From positions 2,223-66,222 of the forward strand of contig JBHPGJ010000004.1 in assembly GCA_042570545.1 (NCBI GenBank): 64,000 bases of DNA, given 5' to 3'. Positions 2,638 to 32,042 of this stretch are shown piece after piece. Position 1 is the first letter of the stretch, and every line of letters begins with the position of its first letter. The position numbers and the translations under genes are program-made. The stretch is from Patescibacteria group bacterium (GTDB taxonomy: Bacteria; Patescibacteriota; Patescibacteriia; JBHPGJ01). The notes beneath the pieces were generated by a model. It ran no database searches, was not told the origin of the DNA, and saw only the letters and a list, made by a program, of their open reading frames with translations.

Positions 2638-3072
2638 TTAGCCTAAAAATTTGATAACTTGGTCAATTAATTGGCTGGGGCTGGTATCGGTTTTGATTAA
2701 ATATTTATCCACTCCCAGACTCTTGGCTCTTTTAACGTAGATATCGTTATCCAAATTCGTAAGCACAAACACATGAGCATCGTGGGTAATATCACTTTGC
2801 TTGACCAGCTCTAAAATATCAAAACCAACCGGATGCTCATACTCGATCACCAAGTCGTTAGAAACTGGAATTATCAGATCAAGCAGTATTAACGGCGGCT
2901 GGTGCTTGAACAGCAAATCCAGAGCCTCTTCTTTGTTTGTCGCTACCAATAATGAGTAGTCAGTGTTTTTAAAAGCTGCTTGATAGACCTTGTTGATCAA
3001 CGGCTCATCCTCGATCAATAGTACCGTTGCTTTGGTCCTACTTGATTTTTTCTTTAGCTTCATTTTTATCAA
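2638..3072 (-). CDS. single-domain response regulator (CheY-like receiver)
   Basis: 144 aa with the receiver-domain pattern (VLLIEDEPLI...LILLDLIIP, conserved Asp and Lys). It overlaps the upstream histidine kinase by 35 nt. Confidence 0.7.
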   Translation of the reverse strand: MIKMKLKKKSSRTKATVLLIEDEPLINKVYQAAFKNTDYSLLVATNKEEALDLLFKHQPPLILLDLIIPVSNDLVIEYEHPVGFDILELVKQSDITHDAHVFVLTNLDNDIYVKRAKSLGVDKYLIKTDTSPSQLIDQVIKFLG

Positions 3073-14757: not shown

Positions 14758-15855
14758 CTAGTAAATGATTATAGTGCTCATAATATCATCCAACATTTCT
14801 AAGCCTGATAACTGCTGATCACCGGTTGGGACAAAACCGCTGATGGTATATCTCTTATCATTTACTATGGTTCCTATAACAATAGCTCGGGAACTACCTT
14901 CAACCTGGCTGTCAGTAATTAACTTCTTAAATTGTTTATCATTTATTATGGCATAATCACAAGACAAGACAGTCTCGTACTCCGGATTACTGCTGTCGCA
15001 GCTGATGACATTTTCAACGGTGTTATTATCAGAGTTATTATAGATAGCAAAATCGGCTTTTATCATACCGTCATCCAGCCCGCCGCGACCGGCTGCCTGG
15101 GTCGTATCCCAATTGGTTAAGATCCAGCTAAAGACATCATTTATCTGGGATTCACTGCCTATGAACCATCCCTCCGTGGGATACTTAAAATTCAAAGATC
15201 CATCACTGCTATTATAAGTCTGCCAATCAGCTGTTGGATCTTTAAAAAACTGAAAAGTAGTCAAGACTTGCGCCAGTTCAGGATAATCTTCAACATAAAC
15301 AGTCGCCCAGGCTAATTTGATAAAACCGTCCACGGTTGGAAAATAAACCGCATCTAACTCGGTTAATCCCAGTTCCAATTGTCTAGTTACATCAAGTCCA
15401 TTAATTGTTTCGGTTCTTGTATCCGATACATCAGTGGTCACCATTGTATCAACAAATTGCATTGTTACGGTCGGCGCCAACTCCGGTGATGATTCGGTGC
15501 CGGCGTCAGTCGGATAAACTTGAGTAAAGGTCGGCTGTACGTTCTTAGCCCAGCCTAGGGGGTATTTTATAGTGTAGTTATATTCATCATTTGTATAAGC
15601 CAACCAGTTGGTCGTATTGGCTGCCGAGTTGGTGTTAATCAGGCTGGTGTTGGTAACGATAGCAGTATTTGTATTTTCTGTGGTTCGGTTGGTATTTAAT
15701 ATGGTGTTGTTTGTGGCGACTGGAGTATTGGTATTAACATTAGTATCATTATCAACCTCCAGCTTGAACCACACCATAGCACTTACCACAGCTAAGGAAA
15801 TCACAGCGATCACAATTACCGCAACGATATGAATATAGGCTTTTTGGTTAATCAT
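14758..15855 (-). CDS. surface protein, paralog family A (N-terminal anchor MINQKAYIHIVAVI..., Thr/Asn-rich linker, C-terminal globular domain)
   Basis: 365 aa. The conserved N-terminus is shared with 15858..16997 and 20440..21936, followed by a low-complexity TNTN linker. Confidence 0.55.
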   Translation of the reverse strand: MINQKAYIHIVAVIVIAVISLAVVSAMVWFKLEVDNDTNVNTNTPVATNNTILNTNRTTENTNTAIVTNTSLINTNSAANTTNWLAYTNDEYNYTIKYPLGWAKNVQPTFTQVYPTDAGTESSPELAPTVTMQFVDTMVTTDVSDTRTETINGLDVTRQLELGLTELDAVYFPTVDGFIKLAWATVYVEDYPELAQVLTTFQFFKDPTADWQTYNSSDGSLNFKYPTEGWFIGSESQINDVFSWILTNWDTTQAAGRGGLDDGMIKADFAIYNNSDNNTVENVISCDSSNPEYETVLSCDYAIINDKQFKKLITDSQVEGSSRAIVIGTIVNDKRYTISGFVPTGDQQLSGLEMLDDIMSTIIIY

Positions 15856-15857
15856 AA

Positions 15858-16997
15858 TTAGCGATAAAACAATAGACTATCAACTATTTTATTGAAAGTA
15901 TTTAGAGAACTAATGCTATTGTAGCCATGATAATACAGCTGATACTGATCGCCGCCGAAGTCAAAGAAAACATAGGCTGCCTCTGTACCAGCGGACGGTG
16001 CTGGCCCCTCAACGTCCTTGAAGGTGCCGATTACTCTGGTAGCTGGCCGGCCACCGACGGTAATTTCTGTCCTCTCGGTCACATTTAGCGCATCGGCCAC
16101 GCTCTGTATTTCTGATTCAGTGGTGCTTTCACCCTGGAATATTTTAATATTTATTCGGGTTGATCCGCCGGCATTGCAGATGGGAGCATAGGCATCATCT
16201 ATATACAGACCAGAGTAATCAGAACCGCAAGTGGTGATAGACCAATCGGGTGGATAAGCAAAGGTAAAGCCATAGGTTTCATTGTCTTGAGTTGGCCAGT
16301 TGGGCTTGTCGGCGACGGTAAAATCAAATATATCAACTAATTGCAGAAATTGCGCATGCGAAGGAGTCTGATCGGCAAACTCAGTCTTGGCATCAAACTC
16401 AATACCCCAGGTAGCGGCATTGTACGAGAAGAAGTAGTAATCAACCATTGATTCAAAGGCTCCCAATACTCTCGTCTGGTTCGCATCGTGGGTTCCCTGT
16501 ATACGATAGCCATCAACTCCGAGAATCTTAATTGGTTCTGGAGTTAAACCACCTGACATACTCTCGGCAAATGTCAGTAGATCGTTCTGAAAGTGATATG
16601 AGACTATGCCTATAGATCCTGGACCAACCGCATCAGTATACAACGCACTGTCTTTGTTTGGATTAGCTTCTGACGCTATTCGAATAATGCCGGCCAGTCC
16701 CCCGTTTTCGTGCCACTTAACTTCGGTATCCGGTGGATACTTAAATGTAACTCCAAGAAAATCATTAGTATAAGTATGCCAGATGGCGTCTTCCCTAACC
16801 GAAACATTGGTATTGATTATCGATTGATTGGTATTCTGATTACTGCTCGGTTCGTCTTTGCTTATACCTACGGTTGTGTTAGTATCGTCAATTTTATCTA
16901 CTTCGGTTTTAAAATAAACCATGGCGGCGACTACCGTAATAGCGATAGCGCTGATCGTTATTACGGCGACAATGTGCGTAAAAGCTTTTTGATTCAT
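15858..16997 (-). CDS. surface protein, paralog family A (MNQKAFTHIVAVI... anchor)
   Basis: 379 aa with a 3-nt intergenic gap. Same N-terminal module and a divergent C-terminal domain. Confidence 0.55.
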   Translation of the reverse strand: MNQKAFTHIVAVITISAIAITVVAAMVYFKTEVDKIDDTNTTVGISKDEPSSNQNTNQSIINTNVSVREDAIWHTYTNDFLGVTFKYPPDTEVKWHENGGLAGIIRIASEANPNKDSALYTDAVGPGSIGIVSYHFQNDLLTFAESMSGGLTPEPIKILGVDGYRIQGTHDANQTRVLGAFESMVDYYFFSYNAATWGIEFDAKTEFADQTPSHAQFLQLVDIFDFTVADKPNWPTQDNETYGFTFAYPPDWSITTCGSDYSGLYIDDAYAPICNAGGSTRINIKIFQGESTTESEIQSVADALNVTERTEITVGGRPATRVIGTFKDVEGPAPSAGTEAAYVFFDFGGDQYQLYYHGYNSISSLNTFNKIVDSLLFYR

Positions 16998-16998
16998 A

Positions 16999-19548
16999 TT
17001 ATTGTTCTACCCAATATAATATCTCCAGCGAGCTAACGTGTGGTTTGTTATCAATATTATCGGTCGACATCACTATTCGCCAACTTAGTTCATTACCGGT
17101 AGTGGTAAATTCATGTTTTTCATCATGAGATACTTCAAACCAATCGGCGCCGCGATTATTACTCAGATAATACTTGATCGAAGCCCCCTCGGGTACATTA
17201 TGATCAATTTTAACAGTCGCTGACAATACATTATTAGTCAGCTGAGGATTTAAGGTGAACTGTTCGGCAAATTGCTCTAATGGCACGCCCGCACGATCAG
17301 CCTGCATAATTAGCGTCTGGGAGCCGAGTAAGAAGTTGGGTGACGAATAGTGCATACCATATATGTCATGCGGTATGGCATATGACACATCAATAACATT
17401 ATCTTCCCTGTCTATGATATTAAGCTGCTGACCCTGCTTGCCGGATACAGCAATATTACCTTCCTCGCCAGTAATATCACCAACAGTAACACCATCAAAG
17501 CCCTTAAGGACGTTGGTCAATGGGGTTGCTTTCACCCGGTTATATTCTGCTAGCTGTAAGATGGGGTCATCGGTTTGCCAGGCAATCCACCAGAGTAGAT
17601 TATTTACCACAATTCCAGCTGGTTCTAGGTCCTTGTAAGCAATGAAGTGATCCGAAACATCCGTCAATGTTTTACCGTTATACTCTAGCATCGTACCCTT
17701 ACCGGCAAATAGCCACCGTTCACCATTATGACCTATCTCAGATATTAAGGTGCTGTCTGTTAGCAAGCTACTGCTAACCGTAGTCACCTGTCCAAATCTA
17801 TCGATCTTGCCAAACAGTGCTGGTACGTTGGTATTGTCACAGCCACTGGTAATAAACAATACAAAGTTTCCGGTCACATCATTGCCCCGACTTAGGTAAT
17901 AAGGGTAATCGCAAGCCCGGGGCGAGAAATCATGCAATATAGTTACACTGTTGCCACTATACTTTAACAATCGTTGCCGGTTGCTAATTATGTAATCAGT
18001 GCCGTTCCATTCAAAATCCACCTTATCGCCATTGGTTATAAAGTCGGGAAGTTTATCAGTGATATCGGTAAATTGCGTGCTGACTAAATCGTATTTTACT
18101 ACGCGGTGCACCCGGTCCCAGCGGCCAACGGCGATCAGACAATACCGGCCATTGCAGTCAATATTTGATATTTCCGTATGGCCGTCTTGGGGATAAAGCA
18201 ATAAATCACTGGATAAAATTTCGATTGGATAATCATGCAGTTCTAGTTTTCCGTCTTGTGAATTCCAGACAGCCCGGTCGTTACCGATTTGCCCACCACT
18301 CTTGAATTCCTGCAAATAACTGTAATGATCCTGTACGACCGTGCTGAATTCAAAAGTCGTTAAAATTTCTGCCTGAAGATCACTATTAGCACGCAGGGTC
18401 TGTTCTTCACACGAGGAAAAAGCTATCTGCAAGGTAAACATACCCCGAGGAGTATGAGTAGATACCCAACCACAGCCAGCATCGCCTTCAATATACTGCC
18501 AGCCTGGTTGATTGCCTACCTTAACGACCGTTGGTTCACTTACCGGGCCATAGACGCCAATCACGCTGCTGGCTTTTACCGGCCGATCAAAGATATTAAT
18601 ATTTATTGATCCGGTATCATTGGTAAAGCTGACCGTTTTGGCGGTGGCGTTTTCAGCTTGGGTAAATTCGGCTGGGTACTTGAAAGAAAAGCCAAACGTT
18701 TCATTGGTATGAGTTGGCCAGTCTTTGCTAACGTGATTATCCAGGGTGATATCACGAATAGTTTTTATTAGAGTTTTAAAATCATCAAGTTTTGCCAGTA
18801 CATCTTCATCATAATTCTCATTTATGATCTGTCCAACTGCATCACTGGCCTTGGTAACCAGATCCAGCCGCTGGGATTCGTTATCTGTTTCCCAAGTACC
18901 AAATTCATCACCCAATATATAGGTAGCCACAACATTACCGTAAGCACGGTGAGGTATGATGGCGCGGTAAATCAGCGCTGACTGACCGTTAAATTGACCA
19001 AGTTCATAAAATTCTACTGCCGTATGGGTATTGGTGCTTAATTTCTCTACTTTAAAAATATCATCAAAATCAGAATTTAAAATATTATATAATTCGTCTA
19101 CGCTTAGATTCAGATCCAGTGGTTTGGTATATTGGGTGTTGTGCCAAGTATTCTCAAGTCGGCCATAGTGATTATCCTGCTGACTCATCGCCAGATTATA
19201 ATCTCCGATAGTTAAAAATACAGATTCCCACTGATCTGACGGATCGGCGTCAGGATTTTCTACCACTCCAGAATAAGCCTCTTTTACCTCGGCTGAAGAT
19301 GGATGTTGAAATGTGGTATTCAGATCACTATTGGTATAGAGCTCCCAACTACTGTCAACCAGGGATGAGGTGTTGGTATTATTAACATTGGTCGTTACTA
19401 CGGCCGGTGTTGTCGCCGCCCGCTCATCAGCCTCGCCTTTATACCAAATCATTACACCCGCCATACTAAGAGCAATAACGCCGATAGTGATAGCGACCGC
19501 TATATGGATAAAGCCTTTTTTATTTTTCATCTTATTAATGTTACTCAA
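16999..19548 (-). CDS. large surface protein (849 aa), paralog family A (anchor KKGFIHIAVAI...)
   Basis: The N-terminal anchor has a pilin-like KG|F junction, followed by a Thr/Asn-rich linker and a large ectodomain. Confidence 0.55.
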   Translation of the reverse strand: MSNINKMKNKKGFIHIAVAITIGVIALSMAGVMIWYKGEADERAATTPAVVTTNVNNTNTSSLVDSSWELYTNSDLNTTFQHPSSAEVKEAYSGVVENPDADPSDQWESVFLTIGDYNLAMSQQDNHYGRLENTWHNTQYTKPLDLNLSVDELYNILNSDFDDIFKVEKLSTNTHTAVEFYELGQFNGQSALIYRAIIPHRAYGNVVATYILGDEFGTWETDNESQRLDLVTKASDAVGQIINENYDEDVLAKLDDFKTLIKTIRDITLDNHVSKDWPTHTNETFGFSFKYPAEFTQAENATAKTVSFTNDTGSININIFDRPVKASSVIGVYGPVSEPTVVKVGNQPGWQYIEGDAGCGWVSTHTPRGMFTLQIAFSSCEEQTLRANSDLQAEILTTFEFSTVVQDHYSYLQEFKSGGQIGNDRAVWNSQDGKLELHDYPIEILSSDLLLYPQDGHTEISNIDCNGRYCLIAVGRWDRVHRVVKYDLVSTQFTDITDKLPDFITNGDKVDFEWNGTDYIISNRQRLLKYSGNSVTILHDFSPRACDYPYYLSRGNDVTGNFVLFITSGCDNTNVPALFGKIDRFGQVTTVSSSLLTDSTLISEIGHNGERWLFAGKGTMLEYNGKTLTDVSDHFIAYKDLEPAGIVVNNLLWWIAWQTDDPILQLAEYNRVKATPLTNVLKGFDGVTVGDITGEEGNIAVSGKQGQQLNIIDREDNVIDVSYAIPHDIYGMHYSSPNFLLGSQTLIMQADRAGVPLEQFAEQFTLNPQLTNNVLSATVKIDHNVPEGASIKYYLSNNRGADWFEVSHDEKHEFTTTGNELSWRIVMSTDNIDNKPHVSSLEILYWVEQ

Positions 19549-20473
19549 TAAACCTAAAGCTATTGGTCATCTCAGGATCCAGCGGTTCAAAATCCTCGGT
19601 GGCAAATGAAGATGCCTGGCCCAAATCCCAGGTCACTGCTATATTACCATCGGGATAATACTTAACTACAAAGGCGTAGTTTAAAAAACAACCTGAATCC
19701 GGCCCACCTGAATTAATAGCTACGTCAAATACACCAGCTTGTAAATCAGATTCTGTCTGTGAATCAACGTTGCATACGCCAGTTCCAAAATTTGTATCCA
19801 CGAAATCATTTAACTCACTATCATTTGTCACCGTGGCGGTCTTAAAATGCCAAGTCTGAGGCGGATCACTGCTTAACCTTTCATAGCTGTTGTTAACCAG
19901 ATTACATTCGGAAAAATTATGCGTTCCGTCTGCCTCTTCAGTTTCGCCACTTAATTCGTATAGAGATTCTTGAGCAATAATTACTGAATCATCTCCCTCA
20001 AAAGTTTTTACCGGCAACATCCCACCGGTCGGCCGATAAGAATCTGTTTGCCACTCGCAGCCGGCATAGCCAAACCAGGCTTGCTTGGGAATGTTCAGAT
20101 AAAAGCCCAGGTCATTATTGGTATATCTATTCCACGTGTCATCAATGCTCTCGGTTGTGGAGCCGGTCAAAGTTACTGCCGTGTTGGTATTTACAGTAGT
20201 GTTGGTATCGGTCCTTGATATGTTTGTATTTACAGGCTGAGTATTCGCTGTCTCGGGTAAGCTATTAATATTTTCTTCTACTTGCTTCTGCTCATCAACA
20301 TTCTGCTGGTAGACGATAACTGCTGACAGTAACACTACTGTCACGCCGAGTATCAGGCCGATAGCTAATAGGTTGGTCAGTCCCTTTTGATTGGTCATAG
20401 ATTTTTTATTAATTATTTTAGGTAGCTTGGTTAATATTTTTATGGTACAGATGTATATGACTCTAAGATACAC
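19541..20473 (-). CDS. surface protein, paralog family B (anchor MTNQKGLTNLLAIGL...)
   Basis: 310 aa. The first ~54 aa are nearly identical to those of 21963..22643. A C-terminal ...NSFRFIE motif is shared with 20440..21936. Confidence 0.55.
   Translation of the reverse strand: MYLRVIYICTIKILTKLPKIINKKSMTNQKGLTNLLAIGLILGVTVVLLSAVIVYQQNVDEQKQVEENINSLPETANTQPVNTNISRTDTNTTVNTNTAVTLTGSTTESIDDTWNRYTNNDLGFYLNIPKQAWFGYAGCEWQTDSYRPTGGMLPVKTFEGDDSVIIAQESLYELSGETEEADGTHNFSECNLVNNSYERLSSDPPQTWHFKTATVTNDSELNDFVDTNFGTGVCNVDSQTESDLQAGVFDVAINSGGPDSGCFLNYAFVVKYYPDGNIAVTWDLGQASSFATEDFEPLDPEMTNSFRFIE
20312..20473 (-). repeat. direct repeat copy 1 (5' end of family-B surface gene)
   Basis: ctattaatattttcttctacttgcttctgctcatcaacatt...ggtcat matches 22485..22643 at roughly 85% nucleotide identity. 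Confidence 0.8.
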
Positions 20474-21936
20474 TTGAGAGTATCGCGCATAGGTTCATAA
20501 TCTGTATATAAAGTGGATTCGTCGGGTGTAGAGCCGTACTCTATGCTGGTACCGTCAGCTAAAGTTATATGATTGGTTTCGTTCTTATACATTAATGTAG
20601 TGCCGGCCAGTCCAGTTGCGGGGTCTTCTGATACATAAATATTACCCGTGCCAGTGTAGCTTGCACCATCGATGTTCAGCGCATCAGTTCGGGGTATTTG
20701 ATCGATAATAACGCCAACACCAGATCGCTGACAAATAACACCAGCTGCGTTATTTTCCGGTGCGCTTATGCTAACATAAGCCGCATTATTAATGTATATT
20801 TTTACACAAAGTTCGTTGCCATATACGGCAAACTTATCGGCAAATGTCATGCCGGCAGCTACTTCATCCGGGGACAGGCTGAAAGCATTCTCTTCAAGGA
20901 GGGTTATTGTAGATGTCGGCGGGTGCATTACTGAATAGTTATATGTGTTGTTGGTATAGGTTGACCAGCCGTCAGTGCAAGTGGCCACTTCATCAGCCGC
21001 AGTGTTGGTGTTTGTTGTTCCTGTTTCTTCATCATCCATTAAAAAACGGAAGCTGTTTACCATACTTTCGTCATACGAATAAAATCCGGCTTCGCTGGCG
21101 AAATCAGCCGGGTCAACTGCCCAAAAATATGGTTCCTGGCCCAGATTCCAACCCACTGCTTTCCCTAAACCAGGGTGGTAAAGTAATTGATAGACATAAT
21201 TTACCGGGCACTTTGTCTCGTCAAGGTCAAGTTCGTCACCTTCGATGGTAACGTCAAAAACTCCAGCCTGATGGTCCCAGGCCGTCTGACTGCCCAGCGA
21301 ACAACCTTCGCCCCATTTGGACTTAATAAAACTGTCCAGTTCCTCATCATTAGAAACATCGGCGAAATCCAATTTCCAACCATCCCAAAAATAACTTTCC
21401 TTCGTGACGTCCGCTAAATCTACGTTGATTCGTTGACAGCCGGCAAAGGTCATACTGCCATCGGGTAACTCAGTGCCCTCAGTTAATTCGAAATAATGGT
21501 CTCGCGTGATATAAAAGGTATTTGCGTCATCAAGATATAAAGATGACACCATACCTTCAGACAAGCTAAAATTCCCATGCCCATCATCGCCACAGCTTCC
21601 AGCGTAGACATAAAAGTACTGGGGTAGGCGTATTGAAAAACCATTACTTTCATCGGCATATAAGCCAAGGTCAGCCTCGCTTGGGCCGCCTTCAGGCACC
21701 GTCGTCCCCTCCAGTGTCTGGGTGTAAGTTTGTCCATTGGCTACACAGGTCCAGGGCGACTGTTCATCATTGACCGGATAACCGGCGGCAACGCACTTAT
21801 CAAATGTATTAATAGTATCAGCCGTAGGCAGTTTATTCGCTTCTGTTTTAAACCACAACATAGCACCGACGGCTCCAGCAGCGATAACAGCAATGAAGAT
21901 GACAGCAACAATGTGGGTAAAGGCTCTTTGGTTCAT
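20440..21936 (-). CDS. surface protein, chimeric paralog (family A anchor plus family B C-terminal domain)
   Basis: 498 aa. It carries the MNQRAFTHIVAVI anchor, a DKCVAAGYPV module shared with 55952..56554, and a QAGVFDV...NSFRFL domain shared with 19541..20473. Confidence 0.55.
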   Translation of the reverse strand: MNQRAFTHIVAVIFIAVIAAGAVGAMLWFKTEANKLPTADTINTFDKCVAAGYPVNDEQSPWTCVANGQTYTQTLEGTTVPEGGPSEADLGLYADESNGFSIRLPQYFYVYAGSCGDDGHGNFSLSEGMVSSLYLDDANTFYITRDHYFELTEGTELPDGSMTFAGCQRINVDLADVTKESYFWDGWKLDFADVSNDEELDSFIKSKWGEGCSLGSQTAWDHQAGVFDVTIEGDELDLDETKCPVNYVYQLLYHPGLGKAVGWNLGQEPYFWAVDPADFASEAGFYSYDESMVNSFRFLMDDEETGTTNTNTAADEVATCTDGWSTYTNNTYNYSVMHPPTSTITLLEENAFSLSPDEVAAGMTFADKFAVYGNELCVKIYINNAAYVSISAPENNAAGVICQRSGVGVIIDQIPRTDALNIDGASYTGTGNIYVSEDPATGLAGTTLMYKNETNHITLADGTSIEYGSTPDESTLYTDYEPMRDTLKCILESYTSVP

Positions 21937-21962
21937 AGTTTATTAGTTAGTGTTGAACATAA

Positions 21963-22643
21963 TCATCCAGCAAAGCTGAATGAGTTATAAAAATCCTCAA
22001 AATTAGGTTCAAGTAAAGCGGCGTTGCTGATTACATAAACACGATCAAGCAACTCGACAAAGACGAGTATATAATCACCAACGCTGCCATCAATCGATGA
22101 GCCGGTAGCTTTAAGCGCATCGGCGCCAGATATCTCAATATTATCTTTGGTAATAGTAAGCCCTTCTAATTTGTCTGCTATATGGGCATCAATGAATCCT
22201 TCGCTATTTTGGTATTCAATAATATTCCACTGATAATCAATATTACCTATATAAAAAGCAGTAGCATTTAATATCCCGTTTGCACCCACCTGTTCTTCAT
22301 TTACTGACCATCCAGATGGGTACTGAATAGCAAAATTATTTCCATTATGCGTCTGCCAGTCAGTATAAACATCAATATCCGGCAAATCAGTTACGCTGGT
22401 ATTGGTTAGCGAGGTGTTGGTTATGTCGGTGTTTACAACTACAGTTGTATCAGTATCGGCTGTTGAAGTATTTGCATTTGTGTGCTGACTATTTACTGTC
22501 TTGGGCAAACTATTAATATTCTCTTCTACTTGCTTCTGCTCATCAACATTCCGCTGGTAGACAATGACCACTGATAACAAAACCACCGTTACGCCTAGCA
22601 CCAGGCCAACGGCTAACAGATTGGCTAATCCTTTCTGGTTCAT
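21963..22643 (-). CDS. surface protein, paralog family B (anchor MNQKGLANLLAVGL...)
   Basis: 226 aa. Its 5' ~160 nt are about 85% identical to 20312..20473. Confidence 0.55.
   Translation of the reverse strand: MNQKGLANLLAVGLVLGVTVVLLSVVIVYQRNVDEQKQVEENINSLPKTVNSQHTNANTSTADTDTTVVVNTDITNTSLTNTSVTDLPDIDVYTDWQTHNGNNFAIQYPSGWSVNEEQVGANGILNATAFYIGNIDYQWNIIEYQNSEGFIDAHIADKLEGLTITKDNIEISGADALKATGSSIDGSVGDYILVFVELLDRVYVISNAALLEPNFEDFYNSFSFAG
22485..22643 (-). repeat. direct repeat copy 2 (5' end of family-B surface gene)
   Basis: Near-identical to 20312..20473. Most differences are synonymous or conservative. Confidence 0.8.
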
Positions 22644-22669
22644 GTTTTTTATACCTCCTGTTTATTTTT

Positions 22670-23437
22670 TTAGTTTGTGAATTGGAAAGTAGAGAGGATT
22701 TGTTCCCACAAGATAATATCACCAGTACCGAGTGTATCTTCGTAAAAAGTCATGACAAAAGCTTGCGTACCGTCATCTAAACAATATTCATTTGGATAAC
22801 TATAGATTTCGTCCGGTGTCCCATCTAGCTGGACCTTATTAACTAGCTTTACGCCTGGCAGGGAACCGATGGTAATGGAGCTTCGAGATATTTCCTCAAG
22901 TACAAACGGGGTAGACGCATAGTTATCAAAACATGACTGGCCCTCATTTAACCGCACTGGGCCAGGTGAAAACTCGGCTATCTTAACTGAGTTCTCATCA
23001 CTGAAAACTGAAGAGCCATTAAATGACCAAGTAGCCGGATATTTTAAACTAAAGTTAACCATTGGCAAGCCTCCTCCGGGATAGCTGTTCCAATCAGTTG
23101 TGGTAAAAGTTCCGTTATAATCGATATTAATCGATTCGTAAGTTTGCCAGTCGGCCAATTCATTCGTTGAGGTATTTGTATTTGTGGTCGTTATGGCCGT
23201 ATTAGTATTAAAGGTCAACGAGTTGGTATTACTGACTGTGGTATCTGTAGTATTGGTGTTAATCTCATTATCAGCCGAACGGGTCATATTGAACTCATTT
23301 ATCTCATCCAGAGCATGGATCAAGCGGTCGGTGCTGATTTTATTTAAAATTACCGTTGATAATACAAAAACGGTAAGTGATAAAATAAGCCCCTGCAAAA
23401 TCAGTATTGTCAGATAGGGCGTTTTTTTGTTGGCCAT
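22670..23437 (-). CDS. surface protein, first gene of the array (signal-anchor, coiled coil, Thr/Asn-rich linker)
   Basis: 255 aa. A 124-bp AT-rich putative promoter region lies upstream (23438..23561). Confidence 0.5.
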   Translation of the reverse strand: MANKKTPYLTILILQGLILSLTVFVLSTVILNKISTDRLIHALDEINEFNMTRSADNEINTNTTDTTVSNTNSLTFNTNTAITTTNTNTSTNELADWQTYESINIDYNGTFTTTDWNSYPGGGLPMVNFSLKYPATWSFNGSSVFSDENSVKIAEFSPGPVRLNEGQSCFDNYASTPFVLEEISRSSITIGSLPGVKLVNKVQLDGTPDEIYSYPNEYCLDDGTQAFVMTFYEDTLGTGDIILWEQILSTFQFTN

Positions 23438-26697: not shown

Positions 26698-27081
26698 CTA
26701 TGGCTGTACAGCCACGGCGCCGCCGCTGACGTCTAGATACTCAATCGTATCTGTCTGTACTAATTGTAGATCACTTATTTTGCTTTCTACTTGAGATAAA
26801 GACTGCAAATTAGCCACCCTTAACTCTAGTTGACCGTTTTGTAGTCTAAGTTCATCAACTTCAGTCCTCAGATCATCTAAGGCAAAGCCGCCAGTGGCCA
26901 CATTATTTATTATGACAATATAAGCCAGCCCCATAACAATCACCAGGATAAAAACAATATATCTAAGTTTTGGTTCGATTTTTCCCAAAGATAGCCTTTT
27001 AACAAAAGATTGATTAGCTGGTTGATTAAAGTTTGTCATAATTTTATTTTTATATGATTTCGGCACAGCGTAATTTCGCAC
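26698..27081 (-). CDS. ftsL: cell division protein FtsL-like (TM plus coiled coil)
   Basis: 127 aa with a single TM followed by a leucine-zipper-like coiled coil. It sits between rsmH and ftsI. Confidence 0.55.
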   Translation of the reverse strand: MRNYAVPKSYKNKIMTNFNQPANQSFVKRLSLGKIEPKLRYIVFILVIVMGLAYIVIINNVATGGFALDDLRTEVDELRLQNGQLELRVANLQSLSQVESKISDLQLVQTDTIEYLDVSGGAVAVQP

Positions 27082-28018
27082 TACGACTGGCCGGGTTTTT
27101 ATTTATTTCTTCTTGTTTTGGTATTTGTGGTTTTTTGGTAAGTATTTTTAATCTGGCCTCATGATCACAAACGCACTTTGGCAGACTTGGTGGACAGATA
27201 CAATCTTTACTTTCAGCTTTAAAATATTTTTTAACGATTCTATCCTCAAGAGAGTGATAACTTATCACTACCAAGCGGCTACCGACGCCCATTATAGAGG
27301 TGAGACTTTTTAAGCCACCATCTAATTCCCCTAACTCATCATTGACAGCGATACGCAGTGCTTGAAAAATTTTTGTGGCGGGATGTCTTCCGCCAATCCA
27401 TGGTTGCCGTGATTTGGTCTTTAGCTTTTTTTTATACACCCCGTCTATTATCTCGGTTAATTGTTTGGTTCTGTTAATCGGCTCTAGCTTTCTAGCAACA
27501 ACTATCTGGCGGGCGATAGGGACGGCTTGACGTTCTTCACCGTAGTCTTTAAATATTTTTATTAATGTGGCAAGGGACGATTTATTTATAATTAGCTCGG
27601 CTGTTTTTTCAGATGATGAATCAAACCGCATATCAAGCGGTTCATCTTTTAGAAAGGTAAATCCTCTCCCGGTAAAACGGAGCTGATCCAGTGAGAGGCC
27701 AAGGTCCAATAATGCTCCGCTAAAATTAATAGTATTAAATAGTTCATCATTTTTTATTATTTGTTTTACTTCAGAATATTTTTTTTGAAATAAATATACC
27801 CGAGATCTATATTGATGTAATTTTTGTTCAGCTAATCTTACTGCGCCATGATCACGATCGAACCCTAATAATATCCCTCGCGGTTTAGTAAGCCTCAGTA
27901 ATTCTTCGGCGTGTCCTCCACCTCCAACTGTTGCGTCAATATAATTTTTGTCCGTTGCCGGCTTCAACCAGCCCAATACTTCCGACACCATTACCGGTGT
28001 GTGGCTACTGTTGGACAT
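27050..28018 (-). CDS. rsmH: 16S rRNA (cytosine1402-N4)-methyltransferase RsmH/MraW
   Basis: 322 aa with HTPVMVSEVLGWL...YIDATVGGGGHAEELL. It lies immediately downstream of mraZ. Confidence 0.92.
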   Translation of the reverse strand: MSNSSHTPVMVSEVLGWLKPATDKNYIDATVGGGGHAEELLRLTKPRGILLGFDRDHGAVRLAEQKLHQYRSRVYLFQKKYSEVKQIIKNDELFNTINFSGALLDLGLSLDQLRFTGRGFTFLKDEPLDMRFDSSSEKTAELIINKSSLATLIKIFKDYGEERQAVPIARQIVVARKLEPINRTKQLTEIIDGVYKKKLKTKSRQPWIGGRHPATKIFQALRIAVNDELGELDGGLKSLTSIMGVGSRLVVISYHSLEDRIVKKYFKAESKDCICPPSLPKCVCDHEARLKILTKKPQIPKQEEINKNPASRSAKLRCAEII

Positions 28019-28030
28019 TTTTAAAACGAT

Positions 28031-28462
28031 CTAAACGCTTAACTCATCTAACGCTTCAGCAATATCACTTGAACTTTTTTCACTATCACCCTTGTATTGC
28101 TCCCAGCTGGTGGCGTCCCAGATCTCCAACCGGTCGGAAACTCCAGCTATTATGGTTTTCTTTTTTAATTCAGCGTAACTTCGAAGGTAATCCGGCAGAA
28201 TGATTCTGCCCTGTTTGTCTAATTCAACTTCCATCGCCCCGGTTAACATTAACCTGGCAAAAGCTCTGGTATTTGATTTGGATATAGGTAATTTTGATAT
28301 TTTATCTGCTAATTCTTCCCAAGCTTCTTTTGTATACAGTGATAGACAATTATCAATACCGCGCGTTACCACCGCTCCTTTAGCAAAAGCTGGCCGAAAC
28401 CTAACCGGTACGGCGATTCGACCCTTTTGATCAAGCGAATGATGATATTCTCCAATAAACAT
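28031..28462 (-). CDS. mraZ: transcriptional regulator MraZ
   Basis: 143 aa with the duplicated MraZ domain (MFIGEYHHSLDQKGRIAVP...KQGRIILP). Confidence 0.92.
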   Translation of the reverse strand: MFIGEYHHSLDQKGRIAVPVRFRPAFAKGAVVTRGIDNCLSLYTKEAWEELADKISKLPISKSNTRAFARLMLTGAMEVELDKQGRIILPDYLRSYAELKKKTIIAGVSDRLEIWDATSWEQYKGDSEKSSSDIAEALDELSV

Positions 28463-28496
28463 TTAATATTACAGAAATTTATTTGTTTAACATTGT

Positions 28497-28637
28497 TTAT
28501 CCACCGATTCATATGTTTTTCCCCACTTTTATCCACAAATCACCTTACATAACCATTTTATACCACAATAGACCTTATGTCAAGAAAATTGTGTAGTATA
28601 TTTACCACCCATTTCATTACTTATGAGTTATCCACAT
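28497..28637. promoter_or_regulatory. three same-orientation TTATCCAC(A/C) DnaA-box-like 9-mers, alternatively MraZ-type GTGG repeats, in the mraZ/lexA divergent region
   Basis: TTATCCACC at 28497-28505; TTATCCACA at 28529-28537 and 28629-28637. On the mraZ strand these are GTGGATAA, together with a GTGGgg repeat 10 bp away (28523-28526). Confidence 0.35.
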
Positions 28638-28644
28638 AATAATA

Positions 28645-28674
28645 TTGACTTTCGGTTTTTATTCGGTATATAAT
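28645..28674 (+). promoter_or_regulatory. lexA promoter TTGACT-N18-TATAAT; lexA mRNA probably leaderless
   Basis: TTGACT at 28645-28650 and TATAAT at 28669-28674. The ATG at 28681 lies 6 nt after the -10 hexamer. The ORF-track TTG start at 28645 is the -35 hexamer. Confidence 0.5.
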
Positions 28675-28680
28675 TTCTAC

Positions 28681-29295
28681 ATGGCTCCAATATTACCCAA
28701 AAAGAAAAAAGAGTTACTCGCCTTTTTAAAGGATTATATTAATAACAATGGTTATGCTCCTACTCTAACTGAGATAGCCAAACATTATGGCCTATCCTCA
28801 TTAGCTACGGTGCATGAACATTTATCTTTCTTGGAGCAACGCGGATTTATAAAAAGAGATAAAAGCCAAGCCAGGGGTATATCGGTTAAAGAAAATTTGG
28901 TAGAGAAAAAAAATATTGGCGGAGTACCATTGCCCCTACTCGGTACGATTACTGCTGGCGCGCCAATTGAAGCAATTGAAGATCGTCAAGACAATATTAC
29001 TGTTCCACAAGAAGTACTTGGCAACAAAGAATCATATTTACTTAAAGTTAAGGGAGACTCAATGATAGAAAGTAATATATCTGATGGTGATTACGTTATT
29101 GTTGAAAAGACCAGCACTGCCAAGAATGGTGAAATGATAGTTGCTCTGCTTGACGATGGTTCAGCAACACTGAAAAAATTCTACAAGCAGAAAAGTAATA
29201 TTAAATTACAACCAGCCAATAAAAATTATAATCCACTAATTGTACCCAACGTTGCTATCCAGGGTCGGGTTTTGGGAATAATTAGAAAGTACTAA
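28681..29295 (+). CDS. lexA: LexA repressor (S24 peptidase)
   Basis: 204 aa from the ATG at 28681 with an N-terminal wHTH (YAPTLTEIAKHYGLSS), the cleavage region AGAPIE, catalytic Ser in GDSM and Lys in TLKKF. Confidence 0.9.
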   Translation: MAPILPKKKKELLAFLKDYINNNGYAPTLTEIAKHYGLSSLATVHEHLSFLEQRGFIKRDKSQARGISVKENLVEKKNIGGVPLPLLGTITAGAPIEAIEDRQDNITVPQEVLGNKESYLLKVKGDSMIESNISDGDYVIVEKTSTAKNGEMIVALLDDGSATLKKFYKQKSNIKLQPANKNYNPLIVPNVAIQGRVLGIIRKY

Positions 29296-29330: not shown

Positions 29331-30455
29331 ATGAATAAAAGTAAAATAATTCACTTATCAATTGACTGTTTCTTCGCCTCGGTGGAACAAGCTGAGCACC
29401 AGGATTTGACCGACCGGCCGGTGGCGGTGATTGATGTCAACAATAGATTTATTGTAAGTCTCAGTCCACAAGCCAGGACTCTTGGTCTTCGTAAAAACAT
29501 GTTATTATCAGCGGCCATAAAAAAATCCCCCACAACCAGATATTTGCGTGGTGATATAGCTCTGTACCAAAAATATTCTGAAATATTTTATAAAATACTT
29601 TATTCATATACTGACAATATCGAGCCGCTTACCTTAGATCAGGCCTACATTGACATGGGCGATGTTACTATCAAGCAATGTCAGCAAATGGTTAATTCCA
29701 TCCGCCAAAAATTTCAAACACAACTAAACTTAACTGCCAGATTCGGCATAGCTCAAAATAAGATAACAGCTTACATTGCCTGCCATAGCCAGAAACCAAA
29801 CGGTAATACATATGTAAACTTCGGACAAGAGAAAAAGTTTCTAAATAGTCTAGACATTTCTAATTTACCGGGAATCGGAATCCGTACTCGCCGAGCGCTG
29901 CAAGGTTATGGCATAAAGACTCTTCGTCAGTTAGCCTTGGCGCCTGATAATTTTTTAAAAGATGAATTTGGTTCTCCCGGTTTGAGATTAAAAAATTTAG
30001 CTGGCGGTAATGACAATAGACCTATTCAAAAAATAAATCGAACCAAAACCATATCAAGACTACAGACAATAAAACCTACACGTAATATTTGGCAAATTTA
30101 TTCAGTGATTAACGATCTGTGCCTACAATTATCTCATCAGTTGAATAATCAATCTCGTCAAACTACTAAAATATCCCTAGTTCTATATTTCAACGATAAG
30201 GCTAAAAGACAATCTATTAAAATTCCATTTCCAATACATAACAAACAAGATATTGAAAAATATGCATTGAAAATACTAACCCAACAATTAATAAATGGAA
30301 ATAATATAACCAAGGTTGAAATAAAGCTATTAGAACTAACAGCTAATATAAAGGAAAATTATTTTTTTAATAACACACTTTCTTCGATTCAAAACATACA
30401 GCATTCAATGTCGTTATTGTATCACCGCTTTGGTTGGCGCTCGCCGGTTATTTAA
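29331..30455 (+). CDS. dinB: Y-family DNA polymerase (DinB/Pol IV-like)
   Basis: 374 aa with the catalytic IDCFFASVEQ and LDQAYIDM motifs and the HhH motif LPGIGIRTRRAL. It is co-directional with lexA. Confidence 0.85.
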   Translation: MNKSKIIHLSIDCFFASVEQAEHQDLTDRPVAVIDVNNRFIVSLSPQARTLGLRKNMLLSAAIKKSPTTRYLRGDIALYQKYSEIFYKILYSYTDNIEPLTLDQAYIDMGDVTIKQCQQMVNSIRQKFQTQLNLTARFGIAQNKITAYIACHSQKPNGNTYVNFGQEKKFLNSLDISNLPGIGIRTRRALQGYGIKTLRQLALAPDNFLKDEFGSPGLRLKNLAGGNDNRPIQKINRTKTISRLQTIKPTRNIWQIYSVINDLCLQLSHQLNNQSRQTTKISLVLYFNDKAKRQSIKIPFPIHNKQDIEKYALKILTQQLINGNNITKVEIKLLELTANIKENYFFNNTLSSIQNIQHSMSLLYHRFGWRSPVI

Positions 30456-30870
30456 TTATTTTTGCTCTTTTCTTTTTAGATTTTGTTAAATGTGGTGGAC
30501 GGCCATAATATGGCACAATAGAAACACCTATTTTTTTATTTTTCAACATTTTTTCTGCTTTTAAAATAAAATCCTTAAAATTATCTACTCTGTCACTTCT
30601 TATTGATATTATTGGTATTTTTAATAATAACGCTAGGGTGTTGGCAGTAACTATGCCTACTCTTACTGATGTAAACGGGCCCGGTCCATTTACTACGGCT
30701 ATGCCAGAAATATTCTGAAAATTTTTATTCTGTTTCTCAATAATCTTTACTATGTTCGGCAGCAACAGTTTTGTGCTAATTGCATTATCAGTTAATCTAA
30801 CAATTTTTTTTACTGAACCAAACTTCAATAAAATACGGTCCGGTTTAGTTGTATCAATAAAAAGATTCAC
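30448..30870 (-). CDS. tsaB: TsaB/YeaZ-like (Kae1/TsaD-family N-terminal domain) protein
   Basis: 140 aa with the motif IAVVNGPGPFTSVRVG (TsaB GPGSFTG(L/V)RIG). Shorter than typical TsaB. Confidence 0.5.
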   Translation of the reverse strand: MNLFIDTTKPDRILLKFGSVKKIVRLTDNAISTKLLLPNIVKIIEKQNKNFQNISGIAVVNGPGPFTSVRVGIVTANTLALLLKIPIISIRSDRVDNFKDFILKAEKMLKNKKIGVSIVPYYGRPPHLTKSKKKRAKIIK

Positions 30871-32042
30871 TATAAATATAGATTTATTAATTGCCGAGCT
30901 ATTTTGGTTATATTCATTTGTAATGCTTTTTTAGGCGATACCCAGCAATAATCAGTGTGTTCCCAATTTAATCCTATACCTGTCCTTTTAGAATCAATAA
31001 TAAATAGAGTAAGAACCCAATTAATATCAAATTTTTTGTTATGTATTTTTTGATCATTTATTTCTTTAATAATCTTTAAGTATTTTCTGCTCAATCCCAC
31101 TTCCTGCTTTATTTCTTCATATATTTGATTATCCGGCTTTGTTTTTTGGTCTAGAAATCCTCCGACCATAGACCACTTGCCTCGATCGGAAAACACTTCA
31201 TAACTTCTTTTCATTAATAAAATGTTTTTTTTGTGCCGTATAATAGAAATTACGCCCGGTATTTTATCTCGACCAACTGTATACTTAGCAAACTCTGTCA
31301 CATCGCGCACCAGGCGTTGGCCGCCTTTACCGATCGGAAAATTATGTCCCACGCCTCGATAAATATTGATTTTTTTAAACTCACTATCACAGTATTTATA
31401 TAATTGTTGACTGTCATCCATGGGTATCCACCGATCTTTACTACCATGAATGATTAAGGTTGGTACTCTTATCTTCTTGGCTGACAAAAAAATATTGTGA
31501 TTTTTAAAATCATTAAAAAATTTCTTTGAGAGTTTATAGACGCCCCCTCCATGAGGGTTTGGAATGTTTACAGTTGATTTACTTTTTAGCTCATCCAGAT
31601 ACTCTTTAAAATAATTATTATGAGTTTTGTCCAATTTTGCTATGGGTGCGATAGCAATTAAACTATTTATAAACTGTTTTTCCTTAGCGGCTGCCAATAA
31701 AACTACTGCGCCACCCATACTATGGCCAATCACCGCTACCCTTCTTACTCCCCTTGTTCGTAAATATTTTACAGCGTCGATCGTTTCGTTAATTTGTTTT
31801 GTATAAGTTAAATCTTGAAACCTGCCGTCTGACTGCATATTACCCCCAAAGTCAAAACGCAGCGCCCACAGCCCTGACCGGGCTAATTGATAGCCCAGTT
31901 GTGGTATGAAATTGAAATCTTTACCACCTTGCATACCATGGCATAAAATAACTCCGCCGGTTGATTTTTTTATTGGCTGATGCAACACGCCAGCTAATTT
32001 CTCACCGTATCTATTCTTAAATTTAACTAGGCTGGTTTTCAT
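30870..32042 (-). CDS. fusion protein: N-terminal alpha/beta hydrolase plus C-terminal Nudix hydrolase
   Basis: 390 aa. The N-terminal part has HGMQGG and GHSMGG (GxSxG nucleophile elbow). The C-terminal part has the Nudix-box-like GGFLDQKTKPDNQIYEEIKQEVGL. Confidence 0.6.
   Translation of the reverse strand: MKTSLVKFKNRYGEKLAGVLHQPIKKSTGGVILCHGMQGGKDFNFIPQLGYQLARSGLWALRFDFGGNMQSDGRFQDLTYTKQINETIDAVKYLRTRGVRRVAVIGHSMGGAVVLLAAAKEKQFINSLIAIAPIAKLDKTHNNYFKEYLDELKSKSTVNIPNPHGGGVYKLSKKFFNDFKNHNIFLSAKKIRVPTLIIHGSKDRWIPMDDSQQLYKYCDSEFKKINIYRGVGHNFPIGKGGQRLVRDVTEFAKYTVGRDKIPGVISIIRHKKNILLMKRSYEVFSDRGKWSMVGGFLDQKTKPDNQIYEEIKQEVGLSRKYLKIIKEINDQKIHNKKFDINWVLTLFIIDSKRTGIGLNWEHTDYCWVSPKKALQMNITKIARQLINLYL

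Follow-up and report, generated by a model that had tools for sequence, protein, structure and literature searches.

Two putative classes of regulatory site, MraZ operator repeats and single DnaA-type boxes, in the divergent mraZ-lexA promoter region of a Patescibacteria group bacterium

The divergent mraZ and lexA genes of a Patescibacteria group bacterium (contig JBHPGJ010000004.1) are separated by a 218-bp spacer, at positions 28463-28680 of the 64-kb stretch of DNA analysed here (the window). An original prediction had noted in this spacer three co-oriented 9-mers resembling the E. coli DnaA box, and had proposed that they serve DnaA-coupled control of division and SOS genes, binding of MraZ to its own promoter, or both. 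The best reading of the comparison reported here, to which we give a probability of about 0.6, is that an MraZ operator is combined with single boxes of DnaA type, the latter recurring at two unlinked promoters. In the first class, direct GTGG boxes recur every 10 bp just downstream of the mraZ -10 hexamer and would be bound by MraZ. The second consists of single (A)GTTWTNCACA(G) 9-mers, including box 3 and probably box C, which would be sites for DnaA acting as a transcription factor. The two classes would share their CCAC/GTGG core by happenstance within the spacer. The elements of the spacer are the following.

28497-28505, read on the + strand: box 1 of the original prediction, TTATCCACC, here called box C
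28529-28537, read on the + strand: box 2, TTATCCACA, overlapping MraZ box A
28628-28636, + strand: box 3, a lone TTATCCACA facing lexA, 8 bp upstream of the lexA -35
28517-28526, - strand: MraZ box B, GTGGGGAAAA, the GTGGGG of the original prediction, exactly 10 bp from box A
28527-28536, - strand: MraZ box A, GTGGATAAAA, at about +13 of the predicted transcript
28537-28546, - strand: degenerate first repeat, AAGGTGATTT (AAGG), 10 bp upstream of box A
28563-28566, - strand: spacer GTGG, three periods (30 bp) upstream of box A, a candidate MraZ site; the GTGG just upstream of the -10 is kept in relatives
28601-28609, - strand: extra GTGG, GGGTGGTAA, 42 bp upstream of the spacer GTGG, seen in the window sequence only
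28578-28583, - strand: mraZ promoter -35, TTGACA, 17-nt spacer to the -10, 11/12 matches
28555-28560, - strand: mraZ promoter -10, TAAAAT, from the consensus scan, columns -25..-20 in the alignment of relatives
28645-28650, + strand: lexA promoter -35, TTGACT, 18-nt spacer, 11/12 matches
28651-28666, + strand: TTCGGTTTTTATTCGG, a direct repeat filling the lexA -35/-10 spacer
28669-28674, + strand: lexA promoter -10, TATAAT, from the sequence and the consensus scan

The three TTATCCAC cores lie on the + strand within 140 bp, as had been claimed. The coordinates first given were right for boxes 1 and 2 and were 1 bp off for box 3, which occupies 28628-28636 and not 28629-28637. The announced two perfect matches and one 8/9 match to the DnaA box were recovered, boxes 2 and 3 being perfect and box 1 failing at position 9. 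Box 3 is indeed located just upstream of the lexA -35 (gap of 8 bp), spanning -53..-45 relative to lexA and about -80..-88 relative to mraZ. Across the window, TTATCCAC is found five times on both strands combined, against a shuffle mean of 2.36, and three of the five copies are in the mraZ-lexA spacer. Only two further copies are present in the 64 kb. None of 300 first-order Markov simulations reached three copies within 150 bp, the largest cluster holding at most two, and a Poisson estimate gives about 2e-5 for at least three copies within 150 bp anywhere in the window. When one mismatch was allowed, the 9-mer showed no window-wide enrichment (20 found, 20.6 expected); the signal is a local cluster and not a genome-wide habit. 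The spacer is also biased for the CCAC tetramer, all six copies in 28463-28680 being on the + strand (about 0.8 expected), with no GTGG on that strand. The remaining TTATCCAC copies (2705 and 16250, with 2747 also listed) were rejected as regulatory sites because they are inside long open reading frames (ORFs). A long ORF at 2638-3072 sits just downstream of a histidine-kinase gene.

Box 2 and the neighbouring GTGGGG (CCCCAC at 28521-28526 on the + strand) are strongly supported, by sequence comparison, as the core of a 10-bp-periodic MraZ operator. Boxes A and B are assigned to MraZ because the 10-bp GTGG pair is conserved, because it resembles the E. coli operator and because the cognate MraZ retains its DNA-reading residues. 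Conservation was scored in 81 upstream regions, from a comparative set of 80 related Patescibacteria mraZ loci (453 kb). In this set, 96 of the 100 copies of GTGGATAA on the mraZ strand are within 500 bp upstream of mraZ, and the 20-mer GTGGATAAAAGTGGGGATAA, allowing at most two mismatches, is present in 62 of the 81 regions at a fixed spacing from the promoter. GTGG is invariant at boxes A and B in 59/59 aligned relatives, as are the longer GTGGA of box A and GTGGGGA of box B, an invariance partly inflated by the picking of loci with the A/B 20-mer. An A precedes GTGG in boxes A and B (47/59 and 48/59, respectively) and the fourth G never varies. The GTGG periodicity is hence conserved upstream of mraZ in relatives. 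The proposal that the 9-mers form an MraZ operator held for box 2 and GTGGGG, a 10-bp-periodic pair just downstream of the mraZ promoter; instead of one periodic array, the three boxes fall into at least two classes of site.

The relatives share a common layout, [GTGG]TTGAC, about 12 nt, GTGG-TG-TAAAAT, about 9 nt, a first repeat (GTGGTnAAAA or AGGGTGAAAA), and then GTGGATAAAA, GTGGGGATAA, 12 nt and (C)TGTGGATAA(C). TTGAC is kept at the place of the mraZ -35 (alignment columns -48..-44). Downstream of the -10, the order box A-box B-N12-GTGGATAA is thus written GTGGATAAAA-GTGGGGATAA-N12-GTGGATAA in relatives, and the window, which reads AAGGTGATTT-GTGGATAAAA-GTGGGGAAAA-N12-GTGGATAAAC, is an exact fit to the layout. 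Its repeats comprise two perfect consecutive boxes, one degenerate box (AAGG) and one in-phase GTGG 30 bp upstream, and the GTGG boxes at 28566, 28536, 28526 and 28504 are in helical phase. At the position of the degenerate repeat, a perfect GTGG is found in 16 of 60 relatives, most others carrying AGGGTGAAAA. The ATG at 28462 is 55-74 bp downstream of boxes A and B together (28517-28536), which follow the -10 by 19-43 bp. In a 28-sequence alignment that includes the window protein, MraZ residues D11, K13, R15, D82 and R86 are invariant, and the cognate MraZ has both DXXXR motifs plus K13, R15 and R86; Lys13, Arg15 and Arg86 are the residues that read the MraZ box (PMC12957436). By analogy with E. 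coli, B. subtilis and Mycoplasma, an MraZ oligomer on boxes A and B would repress its own operon, mraZ-rsmH-ftsL-PBP (PBP, penicillin-binding protein), and the positions of the boxes, from about +13 to +32, would suit repression by occlusion or roadblock.

Known MraZ repeats include the direct repeats of Pmra in E. coli, three GTGG[A/T]G repeats in B. subtilis, which are needed for repression (bioRxiv 2022.02.09.479790), and four AAAGTG(T/G) boxes in M. genitalium. Like these, the Patescibacteria boxes are direct GTGG repeats with a 10-bp period, have an A-rich 5' flank and lie in the interval from the promoter to mraZ. In E. coli MG1655, Pmra reads TTGACA...AGTGGGAAAT-TGTGGGGCAA-AGTGGGAATAAGGGG...ATG, with AGTGGGAATAAGG as last repeat, and AGTGGGAAAT-TGTGGGGCAA-AGTGGGAATAAGG is nearly superimposable on the Patescibacteria AGTGGTAAAA-AGTGGATAAA-AGTGGGGATAAG, including the ATAA after the last box. 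Unlike the known operators, the window contains only two perfect consecutive boxes, the third being degenerate; in Patescibacteria, an extra conserved box C is located 22 bp further downstream, in-phase GTGGs are found inside or next to the promoter hexamers, and the spacers are nearly invariant phylum-wide, which makes box A a look-alike of the DnaA box. About 190 bp upstream of the MraZ repeats, E. coli MG1655 also carries CTGTGGAAAATAG (TTTTCCACA, which fits TTWTNCACA; L081, 89,389-89,401), which may be due to chance (about 0.02 expected).

Compared across relatives, box 1 is a conserved additional element, box C, of the mraZ control region. At the exact spacing of 22 bp downstream of box B, GTGGATAA is found in 32 of 60 relatives, and a sequence within one mismatch of TGTGGATAA in 42 of 60. 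The flanks of box C are like those of the lone 9-mers (CTGTGGATAAC) and not like those of the AAAGTGG boxes, and its positions 3 and 5 are loose. Box C appears intermediate between the two classes of site and probably belongs to that of the lone 9-mers.

This second class emerged from an unbiased count of 8-mers in the 250 bp upstream of the mraZ -35 at 70 loci. After homopolymers were set aside, the top words were TATCCACA (29/70 loci, 0.58 expected), TTATCCAC (25/70, 0.64 expected) and ATCCACAG (17/70, 0.25 expected). At least one 9-mer with no more than one mismatch is present upstream in 50 of 62 loci, at a density of 4.5 per kb, the background being 0.30 per kb. The matrix of the best distal site, seeded with TTATCCACA and drawn from 62 of the 70 loci, is T53 T59 A49/T11 T61 C51 C59 A56 C59 A60, that is TTWTNCACA, loosest at positions 3 and 5 and with A at position 9 in 60/62. 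Unlike the operator boxes, lone boxes have a variable fourth G and no AAA flank, and T precedes their GTGG in 60/62 cases versus 9/59 for boxes A and B. They occur in both orientations (46 vs 16) and persist where the operator repeats are GTGGGGAAAA or GTGGTGAAAA without ATAA (L064, L071, L072, L076 and L055). The degeneracy expected of DnaA boxes, loose at positions 3 and 5 and tight at CACA, is seen in the distal and lexA lone boxes; box C is mixed, and box A, which usually has T at position 9, does not fit.

Other roles for the distal 9-mers were considered. About half of them (25/49) have a T-run within 60 nt downstream, and a terminator-like hairpin of the upstream co-oriented gene overlaps many of them with its stem or loop (the sites examined for hairpins include those of L076, L058, L020, L068, L077, L022, L055, L024, L025, L056, L060, L063 and L078). 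A terminator role of the 9-mer for upstream genes was rejected, the copies at lexA promoters showing no such hairpin and T-run, and the overlap looks like compaction and not function. At L040 (~2517), L053, L052 (~1442) and L069 (~2468), a tandem pair TGTGGATAA-N3-TGTTGATAA with a 12-bp period lies 230-530 bp upstream of mraZ and is followed by a long hairpin-rich leader with no Rfam match. No known RNA containing the 9-mer was found upstream of mraZ, Rfam giving no match in 20 loci or the window, except tRNAs elsewhere. An invertible promoter flanked by inverted 11-mers was also rejected, given the phylum-wide conservation, the direct orientation in the window and the lack of an adjacent recombinase.

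A similar 9-mer is associated with the lexA promoter. A metagenome scan with a LexA alignment added 80 further loci, for a total of 86 lexA upstream regions. In 31 of the 86, direct repeats like TTCGGTTTTTGTTCGG are located exactly between the -35 and the -10, as is TTCGGTTTTTATTCGG in the window, and this direct repeat is the probable LexA operator of the phylum. A Patescibacteria SOS study is listed among the cases of LexA recognising a direct repeat (PMC7739468). Among the 31 promoters with TTCGG repeats, 13 carry the 9-mer (at most one mismatch) just upstream of the -35, against about 0.16 expected by chance; most of these copies read toward lexA and most leave 8-9 bp to the -35. These loci span Komeilibacteria, Uhrbacteria, Saccharimonadales and unclassified Patescibacteria, and lexA adjoins mraZ in only 5 of the 80 mraZ loci. 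At L038, the lexA promoter is 2.3 kb from mraZ and has TTATCCACA 9 bp upstream of the -35, like the window. The position of box 3 relative to the lexA -35 is hence conserved in many Patescibacteria regardless of a nearby mraZ, and box 3 is also a match to the distal element that relatives carry upstream of mraZ. From this comparison, box 3 is an element of DnaA-box type that is conserved in lexA promoters. One 9-mer at two unlinked promoters phylum-wide therefore implies a trans-acting factor with a small regulon.

Further arrangements of the box were seen at lexA. In several lexA promoters that have no upstream 9-mer (L089, L094, L104 and L122), CTGTGGATAAC is found 11-22 nt downstream of the -10, the same distance as that of box A at mraZ. 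The CACA end of the lexA box faces the promoter in both the upstream and the downstream positions. About 390 bp before the lexA ORF of a Saccharibacteria chromosome (L023, 421-445), two tandem boxes TTATCCACAGTTATCCAC abut a -35 (TTGACG) and a LexA operator of TTCG type, and mraZ comes directly after lexA-polY there.

DnaA binds a lone consensus box with high affinity. The consensus of the lone boxes matches the DnaA box (TTWTNCACA as used in PMC7561715) at 9/9 positions with the correct degeneracy, and its extended form, GTTATCCACAG, is identical to the 11-mer of E. coli oriC boxes R1 and R4, flanks included. In the window, unlike at R1 and R4, there is no origin context, DNA unwinding element or nearby dnaA, nor are five or more boxes clustered. 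The DnaA-type site has a fixed place relative to the promoter at lexA (8-9 bp to the -35 in most of the 13) and a variable one at mraZ. The assignment of the lone boxes to DnaA, deduced from these features, stands at about even odds. In a genome of the candidate phyla radiation, only DnaA box-like sequences were reported near the origin (PMC4736985).

Precedents are known from B. subtilis and E. coli. In B. subtilis, DnaA boxes are found at the promoter of the same operon, yllB(mraZ)-ylxA-ftsL-pbpB, where they link replication to FtsL and division; DnaA occupies the yllB(mraZ)/ftsL promoter in vivo and exerts negative control over it (PMC2533591 and PMC8203912). Binding there was shown by chromatin immunoprecipitation (Goranov et al. 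2005, as cited in these two sources), whereas in Patescibacteria it is predicted from sequence. In E. coli, a TTWTNCACA box, TTTTCCACAG, is located just upstream of the mioC promoter (L163) and reads toward it. The same DNA was reported to be bound by DnaA and MraZ (Eraso et al. 2014, as cited in PMC4446571). Unlike the window, mioC adjoins oriC, and its MraZ repeats and DnaA box do not constitute an autoregulatory operator. E. coli uvrB and recN are also similar, with a DnaA box and a LexA operator in one SOS promoter, the two proteins acting as co-regulators (Wurihan et al. 2018, as cited in PMC8203912). In the window, by contrast, the promoter belongs to lexA itself, and the direct repeat TTCGG-N6-TTCGG serves as the probable LexA operator, with the 9-mer at a fixed distance of 8-9 bp from the -35. 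The MraZ operator and the DnaA-type transcription-factor boxes are hence known kinds of element. The 9-mer at fixed position at lexA and mraZ promoters across Patescibacteria is apparently an undescribed regularity. No link between DnaA boxes and the mraZ promoter was found in the titles or abstracts of the papers searched.

The most serious alternative, though an unlikely one, is that MraZ binds all of the boxes, with GTGGATAA as its optimal site, looping that captures the lone boxes, box C and the distal and lexA 9-mers included, and lexA as a member of a small MraZ regulon. Every box contains GTGG and box A is itself GTGGATAA, the window boxes are in helical phase, and ATAA also follows the last repeat in E. 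coli. In addition, the cryo-electron microscopy work reports that one box can seat an MraZ octamer and that longer spacers are tolerated (PMC12957436). In E. coli, a site bound by MraZ overlaps the DnaA box of mioC, and mioC is repressed by MraZ about 12-fold (PMC4446571). MraZ alone could account for the single boxes, and this is one of several points that weigh against giving them to DnaA. The seed of the distal matrix was itself a perfect DnaA box, the loci were chosen with the A/B 20-mer, and the distance from the distal 9-mer to the mraZ -35 varies from 2 to about 170 bp. Position 9 of box C is weak, T (that is, A at DnaA position 9) being found in only 34 of 59 relatives, and the C at this position in window box 1 is barred by the stringent consensus. 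About half of the lexA promoters have no 9-mer, the DnaA consensus used may not be that of the Patescibacteria protein, and both the protein at each site and the sign of regulation are what we infer from sequence. By contrast, the anatomy of the sites, their conservation, their positions and the statistics are direct observations. Against MraZ as sole occupant, lone and operator boxes differ exactly where the preferences of DnaA and MraZ differ (the T before GTGG, the fourth G and the AAA flank), the lone boxes stand in either orientation, and conservation at all nine positions exceeds the need of a 4-bp MraZ core. Furthermore, single boxes bind MraZ weakly in the Mycoplasma work, with a stepwise loss of binding as boxes are removed (PMC12957436).

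The opposite extreme, in which every box of the array, A and B included, belongs to a DnaA cluster repressing the division operon and the 10-bp spacing of GTGG is incidental, is highly improbable. Box A does match the DnaA box at 8 or 9 of 9 positions, box B' (TTATCCCCA in relatives) matches at 8/9, and DnaA binds the promoter of the mraZ operon in B. subtilis. However, what stays invariant in boxes A and B is the 10-bp GTGG period and the AAA flank, which E. coli, Bacillus and Mycoplasma also show in their MraZ operators. At DnaA position 9, box A mostly carries T, and position 2 is lost in 11 of 59 loci (GTGGATGA). Box B of the window (TTTTCCCCA) has two mismatches, DnaA-like boxes are absent from the operator in lineages whose repeats are GTGGGGAAAA or GTGGTGAAAA, and the cognate MraZ has kept its DNA-reading residues. 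Even less probable is a replication origin or a datA-like locus for DnaA titration. Three DnaA-like boxes within 140 bp, and often 4-6 within 250 bp in relatives, would be in keeping with it, and titration could occur as a side-effect. Yet GC skew is negative in all 32 2-kb bins of the window with no change of sign, the cumulative skew falls monotonically, and neither a DnaA signature nor a tblastn match was obtained in the window or the fetched loci (160 related loci), so that an origin-type cluster of DnaA boxes is not supported here. Moreover, genes upstream are mostly co-oriented with mraZ (61 vs 13), and the boxes are tied to promoter positions at mraZ and lexA. Chance clustering in an AT-rich spacer, the least probable explanation of all, would agree with the window-wide count of one-mismatch 9-mers, but it is opposed by the simulations, in which three copies within 150 bp never arose, and refuted by conservation over 80 mraZ and 31 lexA loci at 15- to 80-fold above background density.

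Under the preferred combination of an MraZ operator with DnaA-type single boxes, the evidence suggests that DnaA also reads both the mraZ and the lexA promoters. The original proposal of DnaA control of division and SOS genes thus gained comparative support from the position of box 3 and the TTWTNCACA degeneracy, binding by DnaA being a prediction. DnaA at single boxes would feed the status of replication into the division operon and the gene of the SOS repressor. Because a GTGG is contained in each consensus DnaA box, MraZ may compete or cooperate with DnaA at boxes A and C, and their co-occupancy or competition is a real possibility. If DnaA is the factor, changing box 3 from TTATCCACA to TTATCCACT or TGATCCACA would abolish its binding and spare the GTGG core. 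Tentatively, and with somewhat less confidence than the occupancy of the lone boxes alone, DnaA could act across the phylum as a transcription factor whose small regulon includes mraZ-rsmH-ftsL-PBP and lexA, a direct node coupling replication, division and SOS. It would act through single high-affinity R1/R4-type boxes with the CACA end toward the promoter, interdigitated at mraZ with the MraZ repeats, DnaA and MraZ competing for or sharing the sites.

The coupling of replication to division in bacteria is a long-standing question. Patescibacteria are largely uncultured, their genomes are tiny, their regulators are few, and almost nothing is known of how their genes are regulated. The comparison provides a phylum-wide map of cis-elements, consisting of the putative MraZ operator, the probable direct-repeat operator of LexA and the DnaA-type 9-mer at two unlinked promoters. 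The part that DnaA plays in cytokinesis as a transcription factor is still considered minor or unclear (PMC8203912). If DnaA does bind, its link to ftsL in B. subtilis would look ancient and widespread, and the overlap of MraZ and DnaA sites, once seen at E. coli mioC, would be a designed feature and not an accident. If only MraZ binds, the MraZ regulon would extend to lexA, which would also be new.

The spacer contains two back-to-back promoters of sigma-70 type, each with 11/12 matches in the consensus scan, and the predicted start of mraZ transcription is at about 28548. The lexA -10 ends 6 nt before the ATG at 28681 and the predicted start coincides with this ATG, therefore a leaderless lexA mRNA is predicted. 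At other lexA loci, unlike in the window, leaders of 20-100 nt were seen. The window MraZ is 100% identical to an MraZ annotated at NCBI as "Patescibacteria group bacterium". The flanking genes are the following.

28031-28462, - strand: mraZ coding sequence, first gene of mraZ-rsmH-ftsL-PBP (Pfam MraZ, 1.1e-40)
27050-28018, - strand: rsmH
next in the operon, - strand: an FtsL-like gene and then the PBP gene, the latter called from gene context and its ORF
28681-29295, + strand: lexA coding sequence (Pfam LexA_DNA_bind, 1.3e-16, and Peptidase_S24, 3.5e-32)
29331-30455, + strand: Y-family polymerase gene downstream of lexA (Pfam IMS, 6e-31)

On seven contigs of near-genome size (0.46-0.95 Mb), the relative position of mraZ is 0.51, 0.47, 0.52, 0.48, 0.55, 0.60 and 0.83 (L038, L054, L071, L075, L076, L023 and L029, respectively). 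It is within 5% of the midpoint in five of the seven, which may mean a terminus-proximal cluster of dcw genes (for division and the cell wall) if contigs break near the origin.

Elsewhere in the window, a run of ORFs on the - strand (14758-23437), downstream of a Mur ligase gene, includes six long ORFs with no Pfam match at E<=0.001, listed here.

14758-15855, - strand: ORF with no Pfam match
16999-19548, - strand: ORF with no Pfam match
19541-20473, - strand: ORF with no Pfam match
20440-21936, - strand: ORF with no Pfam match
21963-22643, - strand: ORF with no Pfam match
22670-23437, - strand: ORF with no Pfam match

Within the same run, the ORF at 15858-16997 has a weak PsbP_2 match only. 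The ORF at 30870-32042 (- strand) encodes an alpha/beta hydrolase domain (residues ~17-257) fused to a C-terminal NUDIX domain (263-386), and its neighbour at 30448-30870 encodes a short protein of the TsaD/TsaB family (140 aa).

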